The notes: generated by a model from the sequence alone, not told the origin. A stretch of 22,716 bases of DNA from Candidatus Altiarchaeota archaeon (GCA_016931955.1 JAFGDV010000039.1:1-22716); one strand, 5' to 3'; counted from the first letter of the stretch, positions 16,027 to 22,716 are shown. Translations and numbers: made by a program.

Positions 16027-16956
16027 CTAACCCCTTGTTGGTAGTTTTCTCATGTAGAATCTCCATCCCATATACCTTAGTTCTACCAGTTTTTCATCTT
16101 CAAGAAGTCTCTCTACGAGATCCCAGCCTTTGTTGTTTTTCTCCAGCAGCTTTCTTACAGCGTCTTCTCTCATTGGATGTACGGATGTGATGCTCAGGAG
16201 ATCCTCTTCGACATCTCCTGTGGAGGAGAATTCGTTGCCTTCATAGCCAATAAGATGTCTCACTTGTCTAATTTTTTCACTGAAGATCTGGTATGCTTTA
16301 TTGATTCTTTTCTCTGGTGGGGGTGTTGCCCATGCCTCTGCTGGTGGTCTCGTTGGTATAGAAAGATAGGCTATGGATGGTTTCAGTCCAGATATGAAGC
16401 CAGCTGTCTCTTTGAGCTCATCGTCGGAATCATTTACGTCATCAATCAGCATCGTCTCGGTTGTTAACTCTCCTCTAAATTCCTTGGCGAATCTTCTTAT
16501 CCCGTCGAGAATCTTTTCCAGCTCCAGGGATTTGCAGGGTCTGTTGATCTTTCTCCAGGTTTTCTCTTTTACGGCGTCGACCTTGAGGGAGACCCAGTCA
16601 GCTTTTTTCAGATCATCTATTACATCATCTCTCCAGAGCAGCGATGAATTTGTTATTACTGCAATCTTTATTCCCAGGGGCTTAAGTAGTTCGATCTCCC
16701 TTCCAAGGTTTATGTCCAGGGTCGGTTCACCGTCTGGGACGAATGTTATGTAGTTCGGTTTCTCCCTTCCTAATACTCTTTTTATCTCTGTCACCAACTC
16801 CTCTGGGGGATAAAACTCCTTTCTCTCTGCGAATGTCCCTTTCACTGCACCAAGTTGGCAGTAGATGCATGAGTAACTACAGACCTTTGGAGGGATGTTA
16901 TTCACTCCAAGGCTTCTACCAAGCCTCCTTGAGGGCACGGGGCCGTAAGCCTTCAT
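16027..16956 (-). CDS. Radical SAM protein (COG0731/TYW1-like)
   Basis: YGPVPSRRLGRSLGVN, CSYSCIYC, PDGEPTL, ITNSSL, SLKVDA; start ATG 16956 (the upstream GTG 16965 lies inside the repeat element). Confidence 0.92.
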   Translation of the reverse strand: MKAYGPVPSRRLGRSLGVNNIPPKVCSYSCIYCQLGAVKGTFAERKEFYPPEELVTEIKRVLGREKPNYITFVPDGEPTLDINLGREIELLKPLGIKIAVITNSSLLWRDDVIDDLKKADWVSLKVDAVKEKTWRKINRPCKSLELEKILDGIRRFAKEFRGELTTETMLIDDVNDSDDELKETAGFISGLKPSIAYLSIPTRPPAEAWATPPPEKRINKAYQIFSEKIRQVRHLIGYEGNEFSSTGDVEEDLLSITSVHPMREDAVRKLLEKNNKGWDLVERLLEDEKLVELRYMGWRFYMRKLPTRG

Positions 16957-17188
16957 TACAAACACGCAAGGATACCGTGGACTTCAGTCCACGGAGGAAC
17001 ACGCAAGACCTTTGGTCTTGAGCGTCCGCAAAATTGCAACGCGATTTTTGGGAGCCAAAACTGCCCTGCAGTTTTGCGCTGTCTGAACGTAGTTCAGCAC
17101 ATTGCGTAATACTCCTTACCTTGCGTTTGCACCTCCTTTGTTTTTGACTGTAAGTTCATACCACACCCTTTAGGGTGTGGTTGTTGAT
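16957..17188 (-). mobile_element. Non-autonomous IS200/IS605-type (IscB/ISC-like ends) miniature element
   Basis: Minus strand begins ATCAACA-ACCACACCC-TAAA-GGGTGTGGT (hairpin 17160-17181) and ends TTCCT-CCGTGGAC-TGAA-GTCCACGG-TATCCTTGCG..TGTA|ATG (hairpin 16975-16994); 33/35 identity with 22645-22679. Confidence 0.7.
16999..17100. repeat. 102-bp four-hairpin structured element nested in the miniature element
   Basis: Four consecutive stem-loops with 3-nt loops; interrupts gagga|attgcg, which is contiguous in the copy at 22674-22684. Confidence 0.65.
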
Positions 17189-18057
17189 TTTTCGCATAAG
17201 TAGACGCTTAAACTTTCCCAGATTTTTTTTATGTCAATTGAAGCCTTTCCGTCAGAGAATTCAATCAACGTCTTTCCGGCTATCATCGCCTTTGTGACAA
17301 CGGGGTCGTATGGTATCCGCCCAGCTACTTCAACCCATTTTTTCCTGCAGAAGTCCTCTATTCTGTTGGTGTTCTCTTTGTTGATGTCGTATTTGTTCAC
17401 GCAGACTACTGACCTGACTTTGAAGTGGTTTGCAACATCCAGTATCCTCTCCAGGTCGTGTATCCCTGATATTGTGGGTTCTGTGACGATCAATGCTAAG
17501 TCGACTCCTGCGAGGGAGGCTATCACAGGGCAGCCGATTCCAGGGGAGCCATCTACTATTATCAGTTCTTTGTTGTATTTTTCTGTGAGTTTTTTGGCAT
17601 TTTCTTTCACGACTGTGACGAGTTTCCCGGAGGCTTCTTCCGCTATCCTCAGTTTTGCGTGCGCCATTGGTCCGTACCTTGTCTCTGATATGTAAGCATA
17701 GCCGGAGATTTTTTCTTCAAGCTTGATCGCCTCCGTAGGGCATACGTAGACGCAGGCACCGCAGCCCTCGCACCTGATCGAATCTATCTTTAGATCCTCT
17801 ATTGCATTGAATCTGCATACTTCCCCGCATTTTCCGCATTCTATGCACTTTGAATCATCCTTTATTGCCATCTTTGAGCCCTTAAATGGTTGGGTTTCCA
17901 GGATCTTCGGCTTCAGTATCAGGTGCAGGTCTGGGGCGTCCACATCACAGTCAGCTATTACTGCGTTCTTAGCTAGGGCAGCGAACGATCCCACCAAAGT
18001 GGTCTTTCCAGTACCTCCTTTTCCGCTGATAACCAAGAGCTGCTTTATCTCAGACAT
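17170..18057 (-). CDS. MinD-superfamily P-loop ATPase with inserted ferredoxin domain (COG1149)
   Basis: SGKGGTGKTT, DCDVDAPDLHL, CIECGKCGEVC and CEGCGACVYVCP, DGSPGIGCP, VTEPT. Confidence 0.93.
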   Translation of the reverse strand: MSEIKQLLVISGKGGTGKTTLVGSFAALAKNAVIADCDVDAPDLHLILKPKILETQPFKGSKMAIKDDSKCIECGKCGEVCRFNAIEDLKIDSIRCEGCGACVYVCPTEAIKLEEKISGYAYISETRYGPMAHAKLRIAEEASGKLVTVVKENAKKLTEKYNKELIIVDGSPGIGCPVIASLAGVDLALIVTEPTISGIHDLERILDVANHFKVRSVVCVNKYDINKENTNRIEDFCRKKWVEVAGRIPYDPVVTKAMIAGKTLIEFSDGKASIDIKKIWESLSVYLCEKSTTTP

Positions 18058-21454: not shown

Positions 21455-21820
21455 TTAATATCTATGTCTGCTCTCTCTGCAAGCGTTTGCCTCTGTTGCT
21501 TTTTGTAATCTCCCTGATCTCCAGAGGGATAAGGCATCCCTTACGGTCCCTGTTGTTCCAACGAAGACCTCTATCCCCGATTGTTCGAACATCCAGATGG
21601 CTCTTTGACCTAGACCAGAACAGAGTAGTATCCCCACACCCTCTCCATGCATTATCTCAGGGGGCTTCCCTGAACCGCCCATGTGCTCGCTTGTGTTATC
21701 AACAATCTTTACTTCATCTGTTTCTGTGTCTACTATGGTGTAGGTCGGAGCCCGCCCGAAATGGGGGCTGACTTCATCATCCAGTCCCTTATGTCCTGTT
21801 GTCGGTATTGCGACCTTCAT
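21455..21820 (-). CDS. NifB/NifX-family metal-cluster-binding protein
   Basis: [28 protein letters not shown]. Confidence 0.9.
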
Positions 21821-22635
21821 CCTCTCACCTTCTCAACAATATCATTAAAGGCCTTCCCAGCCTCCGAATCATGATGTTTAAGGATGAATGGATTTCCTTC
21901 ATCGCTGTCTTCGACAATTCTGGGATCGATTGGGATCCTACCCAGGAAGGGAACCTTAAGTTCCTTTGCTGCTTTTTCTCCCCCACCTGTCTTAAACAGG
22001 GTGATCTCTTTTCCGCAGTGGGGGCATTTAAGCCCTGACATGTTCTCGATTATTCCCATGACTGGGATGTTCAACTTCTTTGAGAAATTCACAGCCCTCC
22101 GGGAATCCATCAAGGCAACTTCTTGTGGGGTTGTTACTATGATGGATCCTGTTATGTCGGGGATTAATTGTGCGATACTTAATGGCTCGTCTCCGGTTCC
22201 TGGGGGTAGGTCAAAGATCAGATAGTCCAGATCTCCCCATTCAACATCTGATAGGAACTGCTGTATTGCGCCCATCTTCAATGGACCTCTCCAGATGACT
22301 GGCACGTCTCTTTCCAGCATGAATGCCAGAGACATTACTCTAAGGGCTCTTCCAGCGCCAATTGGTATCTTAGCAGGTTTTATACCCTCTTCAGAAGCAT
22401 CTAGTTTCGTATCTTCTATTCCAAGCATCTTCGGGACATTTGGTCCGTGTATGTCCACGTCTATTAAGCCGACGTTGTAGCCTTTCATCTGTAATGCGAA
22501 GGCAAGATTCACTGCGACGGTGGTTTTTCCCACGCCGCCTTTTCCGCTCATGACCATTATCTTGTTCTTTATCTTTCCGATTCTTTTCTGGATCGATTCT
22601 TTCTGTTCTTCCAGATTTTTCTGCTTGTTCTCCAT
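21817..22635 (-). CDS. mrp: Mrp/NBP35 (ApbC) Fe-S cluster carrier ATPase
   Basis: [44 protein letters not shown]. Confidence 0.95.
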
Positions 22636-22716
22636 TACAATTTTCGCAAGGGTACCGTGGACTTTAGTCCACGGAGGAATTGCGAACTATGTTAGTGTTC
22701 GCTTGTCTTGCGTGTA
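22636..22716 (-). mobile_element. Right end of a second copy of the ISC-like element (truncated by the window end)
   Basis: Hairpin ccgtggact-tt-agtccacgg 22655-22674 enclosed by cgcaa/ttgcg; ends TGTA|ATG at the mrp start, like the 16957 copy. Confidence 0.7.

Follow-up and report, generated by a model that had tools for sequence, protein, structure and literature searches.

Our analysis of a 22,716-nucleotide (nt) stretch of DNA from Candidatus Altiarchaeota archaeon (GCA_016931955.1 JAFGDV010000039.1:1-22716; "the window" denotes this whole stretch) indicates that a 232-nt insert between two host genes, at positions 16957-17188, is a gene-less palindrome-associated transposable element (PATE). 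In the explanation that we favor, to which we assign a probability of roughly 80%, it derives from an insertion sequence (IS) of the IS200 type (family IS200/IS605) that carries tnpA only, resides in Altiarchaeota-like hosts, is placed much as IS608 is, and is tolerated by way of a replacement ribosome-binding site. Comparison of copies yields the family membership, boundaries, target, covariation of guides with cleavage sites, and accumulation on start codons; tolerance through ribosome binding is the part that we infer.

A mobile family with tnpA-bearing relatives

The window's own genome (G000; 1.55 Mb in 46 contigs with 92 contig ends; 92% complete) was compared with related genomes (other G numbers) and with individually examined loci (L numbers, e.g., L138), some of them on metagenome contigs. 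G000 contains a 16S fragment of archaeal type. The insert had 44 BLAST matches within G000. When sorted and read on the gene strand (carets mark junctions), these copies gave 17 left ends of the form A-rich flank^ATCAACAA plus a hairpin, and 17 right ends identified by terminal sequence (14 by the hairpin copy), reading ...CCTTGCG.GTTTGTA^ATGA or ...GAAAATTGTA^ATGG. Copies within a genome were 83–100% identical and stood before unrelated genes. Those fully assembled in G000 were the window's own, C42:28433-28719 (93% identical), and C18:1-144; most family ends lay 40–90 nt from a contig end, and at least 27 of the 92 contig ends fell inside family members, from which we conclude that the family breaks the assembly. 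Matches to the element were found in 17 of 40 related genomes, and its terminal 18-mer had 43 exact matches in 185,579 species genomes (one per GTDB species, 596 Gb): 28 in archaeal metagenome-assembled genomes, mostly named Altiarchaeales or Altiarchaeota, and 15 in bacterial coding sequence, about the number estimated by chance.

Five tnpA-bearing copies from relatives (G024:C20, G038:C115, L124, L138, and L177) share the same left hairpin and the ...CCTTGCG(T/A)GTTTGTA^ATGA end; two are intact, one is decayed, and two were seen only in part (L124 is from a single-cell genome, L138 and L177 are on metagenome contigs, and the tnpA of L177 is in fragments). Where both ends were on the contig (G024:C20 and L138), the element measured ~660–690 bp. 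Its order on the gene strand is left hairpin, tnpA (antisense to the abutting gene), A-rich tract with GGAGGT, a stem enclosing a second hairpin, ...GTA^ATGA, and the gene; G038:C115 has the same layout up to the ATGA, where its contig stops. Genes abutting tnpA copies include one for a lipoprotein with a signal peptide and another that starts 4 bases after the preceding gene's stop. The sole open reading frame (ORF) of full-length copies encodes a 157-aa TnpA (137 bits to NF033573 transpos_IS200, cut-off 55), with homologs in the PDB that include 2EC2 (5.7e-26), 2F4F, ISDra2 2XM3, and IS608 2A6M (IS608 and ISDra2 at 5e-17 to 5e-20).

Since these tnpA-only relatives share the window element's ends, we regard the latter as a PATE of a tnpA-only IS200-type element. 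This agrees with a first-pass annotation of the stretch, which had proposed a non-autonomous IS200/IS605 element with subterminal hairpins and had anticipated both additional copies and full-length copies with a TnpA; the latter were found in relatives. The TnpB zinc-ribbon domain had no match in G000, and TnpB-bearing elements of the relatives have different ends. Affiliation with REP/RAYT (REPIN) systems was rejected, as TnpA scored 26 bits on NF047646 REP_Tyr_transpos (cut-off 80) and the ends are asymmetric left and right ends rather than inverted REPs.

Boundaries and guide-directed cleavage

The transposon top strand, as defined by tnpA, is the window's plus strand, which places the left end (LE) at 16957 and the right end (RE) at 17188. 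On the minus strand, the junctions read ...TGCGAAAA^ATCAACAACCACACCCTAAAGGGTGTGG...TTCCTCCGTGGACTGAAGTCCACGGTATCCTTGCGTGTTTGTA^ATGAAGG, and the fuller layout is ...TTATGCGAAAA^ATCAACAA-CCACACCCTAAAGGGTGTGG-TATGAAC ... CAAAAACAAAGGAGGTGCAAACGCAAGG ... TTCCTCCGTGGACTGAAGTCCACGG-TATC-CTTGCGTGTTTGTA^ATGAAGGCT. The features of the element are:

16957-17188, minus strand: the whole non-autonomous element (PATE), 232 nt (family consensus boundaries, filled and empty sites in relatives, guide/cleavage rule)
16953-16956, minus strand: left cleavage site (C_L) and target, reading ATGA on the gene strand (top strand, TCAT) and lying outside the element (junction and copies)
16971-16974, plus strand: predicted left guide (G_L) GATA, adjoining the LE hairpin on its 5' side, at a distance of 18 nt from the cleavage site (IS608 rule)
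16975-16994, plus strand: LE subterminal hairpin (IPL), top strand CCGTGGAC-TTCA-GTCCACGG (stem covaries between lineages)
17157-17160, plus strand: predicted right guide (G_R) CATA, directly 5' of the RE hairpin (IS608 rule)
17161-17180, plus strand: RE subterminal hairpin (IPR), top strand CCACACCC-TTTA-GGGTGTGG; its loop provides the ATPase stop TAA at 17170-17172
17185-17188, plus strand: right cleavage site (C_R) TGAT, forming the element's final 4 nt and lying 8 nt 3' of the foot of its hairpin (copy comparison)
17130-17136, minus strand: Shine-Dalgarno-like motif GGAGGTG, outward-facing, after the A-rich CAAAAACAAA; unpaired in the predicted fold (fold, conservation)
17119-17131, minus strand: 5' arm of the predicted closing stem, TGCAAACGCAAGG (fold, alignment)
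16957-16971, minus strand: 3' arm of the predicted closing stem, CCTTGCGTGTTTGTA, ending one base before the ATG (fold, alignment)

Both end hairpins have 8 bp and a 4-nt loop, and the termini (ATCAAC... and ...TTTGTA) are unrelated, without terminal inverted repeats. In IS608, according to PMC3201880, cleavage at the left end occurs outside the element, 19 nt 5' of the hairpin, and at the right end inside it, 10 nt 3'. That source places a 4-nt guide 5' of the hairpin foot, with right-end site position -4 pairing with guide position 2, -3 with guide position 1, and A at -2 unpaired (PMC3201880). Pairing of site position -1 with guide position 4 is our own reading of this scheme.

By this rule, all three predicted guide/site pairs form at each end of the window element, with A at -2. 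At the RE, pairing was possible in 40 of 40 distinct copies (TGAT/CATA in 27, TTAT/AATA in 10, wobble variants in three) at a distance of 8–9 nt, and the switch from G-C to T-A among them is a compensatory change. Among 41 LE sites with a detected adjacent hairpin, site and guide were TCAT/GATA in 32, CCAT/GGTA in five, CCAT/GATA in two, TCAT/GATG in one, and the unrelated ACAT/AATT in one (Fisher p = 3e-5), at 18–19 nt. The five CCAT/GGTA sites share their guide by descent, though the insertions are independent; C42 (GGTA at CCAT) is an independent case and L126 (GGTA at TCAT) an exception. This covariation is the strongest evidence on mechanism and fixes the boundaries at 16957 and 17188. 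The boundaries and minus-strand sequence of the first-pass annotation were the same on rereading, and its boundaries agree with both the guide rule and the family consensus. A parallel or antiparallel pairing of AAGGA with TTCAT was dropped as a guide, as the published IS608 scheme fits instead.

By analogy with IS608, a Y1 HUH transposase acting in trans would cut the top strand, i.e., the window's plus strand. A single-stranded circle would be excised and pasted 3' of TCAT with no bases gained or lost, TCAT being read through pairing with the guide GATA beside the LE hairpin, while the right end would be cut after TGAT as read by CATA. Because ATGA on one strand reads TCAT on the other, an element whose top strand is antisense to a gene would be placed precisely after position -1 and directly before the A of an ATGA start, here at the ATPase/radical SAM junction.

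Placement on start codons

Filled and empty sites support this picture. Copies in G002 and G011 lie between ...AAA and the ATG of genes that are uninterrupted in G000; alignment extends over both flanks without any duplicated bases (G002 with C19; G011 with C22, the latter less cleanly), in keeping with the earlier suggestion that no target duplication is made, and the flanking As belong to the host. More broadly, the orthologous G000 sites of relatives' copies read ...AAA^ATG without interruption, apart from a single occupied site, and in eight of the ten relatives' abutting genes that have a G000 ortholog, protein alignment runs from residue 1.

The sequence after the right-end junction (gene strand) followed the predicted ATG-purine pattern in all 52 tabulated ends (ATGA in 45, ATGG in seven). 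The abutting ATG opens at least 88 codons at 43 of 52 distinct sites (13/17 in G000 and 30/35 in other genomes). With metagenome contigs included, sites defined by the terminal pattern numbered 85, at which the ORF was long in 66, short in 18, and undetermined in one; under a stricter filter 57 of these remained (49 long), the 28 dropped being mostly variants with other hairpins plus two bacterial chance matches. By comparison, 25% of all ATGAA in G000 open at least 90 codons. Position -2 is A in 16 of 16 G000 left ends, versus 49% of start contexts genome-wide.

An ORF was found to enter the element from upstream without frame preference: 16 of 51 left ends were entered by a long ORF, in frames 6/5/5. 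At many sites TAA or TGA stands 1–5 nt before the element (e.g., gcaTAAa^, cgTAAa^, aTGAaaa^), which would fit tight stop-to-start junctions within operons.

A candidate ribosome-binding module

In all ATG-targeting lineages inspected, whether or not they carry tnpA, an A-rich tract plus GGAGGTG lies directly 5' of a stem whose terminal 3' arm is CCTTGCGTGTTTGTA. Variants of the motif were GGGGGTG, AGGGGTG, AGAGGTG, and GGAGGTA, and it was not seen in L110 or in two truncated remnants (L141 and L143). Across a 23-sequence alignment GGTG is invariant, preceded by GGAGG, GGGGG, or AGAGG in 23 of 23. A start-anchored profile of Shine-Dalgarno usage in G000 peaked at -13/-12 for GGAGG and at -10/-9 for GGTG, while a scan of GGAGG-to-ATG distances in that genome returned codon periodicity only. 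In linear sequence the motif has no start codon after it, which leaves the host ATG, 34–184 nt away, as the sole candidate.

RNA folding of the insert was strongly predicted (-96.1 kcal/mol, z = -6.6 against 200 shuffles; 251-nt stretch, z = -5.8 for the other strand). In the window's own predicted fold, motif and AUG are single-stranded and three steps apart. The 7-bp stem core shows two compensatory pairs and, on the gene strand, 11 G-U versus one A-C cells, which favors folding of the gene strand, i.e., the host mRNA. A sister PATE that lands on ATAA is without the module.

From this evidence we suggest, at roughly even odds, that the module may act as a replacement ribosome-binding site for the host gene: in the operon mRNA, the gene-facing A-rich tract and GGAGGTG beside a long stem ending at the ATG would take over from the separated native signals, and the hairpin at the opposite end would terminate the upstream gene at a new stop, five codons further on. 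A bolder proposal, which we advance tentatively and rate somewhat short of an even chance, is that this IS200 lineage is a start-codon specialist, with a guide selecting TCAT, the complement of its hosts' commonest start context, and with a portable translation-initiation module held near the host ATG by a stem around the transposase-binding hairpin, mirrored on TAA stops by the sister lineage (TTAT).

Weighing the explanations

The most serious alternative holds that the insert is the same IS200-type PATE with no adaptation to start codons, its placement arising from insertion at (A-rich)^ATGAA and purging of copies inside genes. An element that needs (A-rich)^ATGAA and does not survive inside genes would for that reason sit mostly on start codons. 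ATGAA and ATGGA are the commonest start 5-mers in G000, and AAA is the commonest triplet at -3 to -1. Outside genes (by crude gene calls), the share of sites that are start codons is already 45% for ATGAA and 70% for AAATGAA. GGAGGTG and the stem would then serve the transposon: the top-strand CACCTCC, as an anti-Shine-Dalgarno sequence, and a T-run could damp tnpA expression or stop transcription from reading in, as at the left end of IS200, or the structure could be part of the TnpA substrate. IS200 is described in PMC4513863 as regulating tnpA through a 5' leader and antisense RNA, and the stem is the sole hairpin remaining at that end in mini copies. Against this account, gene-less copies have no tnpA to control yet keep the motif while other internal parts vary freely; its A-to-G changes (GGGGG, AGGGG) can still pair with the anti-Shine-Dalgarno sequence but would mismatch GGAGG on the opposite strand. 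The 11-to-1 excess of G-U over A-C on the gene-strand stem and the lack of a module in the ATAA-targeting sister lineage also argue against it, and separating a gene from all its upstream signals should be harmful unless they are replaced. On balance, we consider this alternative rather unlikely.

Several results weigh against the explanation that we favor, or against parts of it. The observed start-codon share of 78–86% differs strongly from 45% (p ~1e-10) and marginally from 70%, i.e., it is modestly above the passive expectation. Of 62 predicted copy folds, only 15 place the motif within seven steps of the AUG (median 15, versus 19 with a shuffled interior), the 3' arm of the closing stem has a second possible partner in many copies, and no contrasting asymmetry was seen in the transposase hairpin of the opposite end (~8–9 A-C versus 6–8 G-T). 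CACCTCC, complementary to the motif, falls within the 5' leader of tnpA and could serve transposase control instead. Guide pairing is broken at three of the 41 hairpin-bearing LE sites, and numerous mini copies in G006 have no LE transposase hairpin and carry GAAT at the guide position, so the model leaves their multiplication unexplained. A search for PF01797 (Y1_Tnp) returned no tnpA in the 46 contigs of G000 (92% complete) or in its congener G001; a transposase source in G000 is assumed, and tnpA may lie in unassembled repeats. Five G000 right ends of a form that we call type A resemble the ends of tnpA-bearing copies, and a 32-mer from the interior of type A copies had no match in a metagenome scan. 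Finally, no empty allele of the window site was found, the assembled contigs of one DNA run stopping at the element without an empty joint, and the relatives examined have no orthologous empty site for the ATPase/radical SAM junction: orthologs of the two genes lie on different contigs or beside other genes there, and the radical SAM gene has other upstream neighbors. The first-pass annotation, which had proposed seeking such a site in relatives, found no support on this point. Two RNA runs from the study behind that DNA run carried next to none of the region's sequence words, and no RNA cover of the element was seen.

That annotation had also read the insert as a miniature IscB or IsrB (ISC) derivative, a remnant of a HEARO/omegaRNA transposon with an ATGA target-adjacent motif (TAM). 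In one respect it was right: a preprint (bioRxiv 10.1101/2023.03.14.532601) gives TTCAT, the reverse complement of ATGAA and the target seen here, as the TAM of the ISGst5 IscB of Geobacillus stearothermophilus, so some IscBs do use such a target. The ancestry itself did not hold up, and we now consider it very improbable. In the five tnpA-bearing copies with these ends, tnpA is the only coding gene, and no full copy encoding IscB or IsrB was found; the RRXRR domain (PF14239) was matched in none of 41 genomes, though 14 control genomes were equally silent. The relatives' elements that do bear TnpB are without these ends. No Rfam family, HEARO included, was found on the window element or on four relatives at permissive thresholds: at E <= 10, positions 16800-17350 gave a chance match to RsaE only (E = 4.9), and at E <= 1 four relatives and a sister copy gave sub-threshold chance matches only. 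No family reached the gathering score in the window, and a separate search returned no tRNA or tmRNA.

Least probable of all is a non-mobile cis-regulatory 5' leader RNA (riboswitch or thermosensor) common to many genes, which would suit the strong predicted structure, the constant position upstream of and co-oriented with a gene, and the two alternative partners of the 3' arm in many copies, but which is contradicted by the filled and empty sites, i.e., by presence and absence at orthologous sites between genera, and further by 83–100% identical copies before unrelated genes in one genome, by transposase-bearing versions, by ends that both follow the transposase guide rule, and by the absence of any Rfam match.

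The window locus

With a mobile PATE as the favored explanation, the flanking genes and remaining parts of the locus can be described as follows:

17170-18057, minus strand: upstream host gene, P-loop ATPase with 4Fe-4S domains (CbiA/ParA type) (ORF and domain search)
16027-16956, minus strand: downstream host gene for a radical SAM protein; the element adjoins its native ATG (ORF, domains, orthologs)
17004-17100, minus strand: extra internal hairpin modules, absent from ~150-nt sister copies of the same genome (fold and copy comparison)
22630-22716, minus strand: second family member, of the ATGG sublineage (guide GGTA), right-hand part, cut by the contig end (copy comparison)

The ATPase ORF reads into the insert and ends ...CEKSTTTP*, its last five codons (STTTP) and stop being element sequence; the TAA at 17170-17172 is located within the loop of the hairpin at the ATPase-side end (RE by top strand). 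The replacement stop proposed earlier is therefore present, and both ORFs are intact. The radical SAM protein begins MK(A/V/T)YGPVP at the same codon in seven of seven orthologs examined from relatives, which identifies the ATG at 16954-16956 as the gene's own. The ATG at 22633-22635 that abuts the second family member starts an ORF for a ParA/NUBPL-type ATPase (21817-22635).

It had also been claimed that removal of the insert restores an ATGA stop/start overlap like those at 20154-57, 20801-04, and 21817-20, which ORF ends confirm as 4-nt overlaps. Computed excision of 16957-17188 does yield GAA AAA TGA; the relatives hold no orthologous empty junction to match it. As an A-rich left flank followed by ATGA always creates TGA, in the upstream frame one third of the time, an overlap between the ATPase and radical SAM genes before insertion is plausible at best. 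The further claim that the element targets start codons as safe sites stands in part: 66 of 85 abutting ATGs open a long ORF, but target motif and selection explain much of this association, so safe-site targeting is only partly supported.

In G001 (L063) and G002 (L069), a methyltransferase gene precedes the radical SAM gene with a AAAAATGAAAG stop/start overlap. The same methyltransferase lies on another contig in G000 (C5:95880-96390), where it still ends AAAAAATGA and is followed by a 10-codon ORF; gene order is rearranged exactly at the junction that now holds the window element.

Related repeats

Modules from the interior of the element (query 121-153 and 176-205; window 17004-17100) recur alone many times in G002, G011, and G024, and may be small repeats that nest in PATEs, like the SMR elements described from Haloquadratum. 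The ~14 mini copies of G006 (56 nt; loci L079, L080, L091, L092, and L098-L133) retain the right-end hairpin, spacer, A-rich tract, and GGGGGTG, followed by a 28-nt hairpin that runs up to the ATG.

The sister PATE occurs in G000 at C29 (~1-130), at the ends of C30, C31, and C32, and in C44 (reverse strand, ~1165-1300). It has the same ATCAACAA plus hairpin end and a different left end, ...GCCGACTTTGTA^ATAA, with no ribosome-binding motif. Its target is ATAA (TTAT on the top strand; TTTAT in four of five copies), and a search for its guide identified none. In C44 it splits AAA^TAA, and the upstream ORF now ends ...KSTTIP* within the element. The sister PATE may be the stop-codon counterpart of the window element.

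Other hairpin ends, of ATAAACTT and ATAAATAT type, near the ends of contigs C4, C6, C33, and C45 suggest further IS200-like families in G000. At L076 (G006:C8) and at the G000 C32 end, family elements adjoin directly, a PATE abutting the left hairpin of a decayed tnpA copy; family elements may create or prefer one another's flanks.

Implications

A literature search, which left supplementary tables (including those of Geobacillus transposon ends) outside its scope, returned no description of this family or of a start-codon-seeking IS200. An IS200-type element, autonomous and gene-less, with a left-end ribosome-binding motif and sitting on start codons about four times in five, is therefore apparently unreported. 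The guide/target series TCAT/GATA, CCAT/GGTA, TGAT/CATA, and TTAT/AATA extends the IS608 rule to archaeal tnpA-only elements and is usable for retargeting tests. For genome analysis, the family fragments Altiarchaeota assemblies and adds short C-terminal tails (STTTP here), and its position on gene starts means that it can mislead start-codon calls.

If the start-codon specialist proposal is true, autonomous and gene-less copies alike could live in archaeal operons, borrow host transcription, and spare both neighbors. If the ribosome-binding interpretation is true, a DNA transposon would be making insertion between a gene and its translation signals harmless, a safe-site strategy unlike the targeting of terminators, tRNAs, or attTn7, and one that would offer a compact natural "insulated" archaeal initiation cassette.

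Comparison with known systems

The family shares with IS608 (Helicobacter pylori) and ISDra2 a homologous Y1 HUH TnpA, subterminal hairpins, and the absence of inverted repeats and target duplication. Its geometry is close to that given for IS608 in the source cited above: the LE site is outside, 18–19 nt 5' of the hairpin (19 in IS608), the RE site is inside, 8–9 nt 3' (10 in IS608), and 4-nt guides pair at -4, -3, and -1 with an unpaired A at -2. It differs in its target (TCAT, rather than TTAC or TTGAT), in carrying tnpA without tnpB, in its archaeal host, in the outward left-end ribosome-binding motif, and in that most copies are gene-less.

The PATEs of Haloquadratum walsbyi, as set out in passages of PMC3119063, are likewise too short for a transposase, have near-terminal palindromes and no inverted repeats or target duplication, correspond to IS605-type elements minus their core, and outnumber autonomous elements. 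Unlike the window family, they are mostly TnpB (IS1341-type) derived, and those passages report no start-codon placement or ribosome-binding site for them (PMC3119063). In Geobacillus stearothermophilus, ISGst5 (IscB) and ISGst2 (TnpB) belong to the same family and use the same pentanucleotides, TTCAT as in the window lineage and TTTAT as in the sister PATE, and also have gene-less PATE-like relatives mobilized in trans, according to the preprint (bioRxiv 10.1101/2023.03.14.532601). By the same account, those elements code for RNA-guided nucleases together with omegaRNAs, and the IscB ones share the orientation of the upstream gene, whereas in the window family no nuclease or omegaRNA was found and the abutting gene runs antisense to the top strand.

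In its presumed effect on the host, the window element appears to work like Neisseria REP2, Borrelia IR, and mycobacterial MIRUs, which PMC3184786 describes as small structured repeats upstream of genes or in operons that are transcribed with the operon and bring a ribosome-binding site, REP2 and IR also bringing a promoter and ATG. For those repeats neither a transposase nor a defined chemistry of insertion is known, and some of them contribute the ATG themselves (PMC3184786). Here, by contrast, the ATG is the host's own, a transposase family and target rule can be identified, and a stem stands between motif and ATG. Phage T4 genes 38 and 25 have what are regarded as split ribosome-binding sites, in which an intervening hairpin would bring the Shine-Dalgarno sequence to working distance from the start codon. 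The T4 hairpins are ~20 nt long, act in phage mRNA, and have been experimentally tested, whereas the stem predicted here would enclose 5–190 nt.

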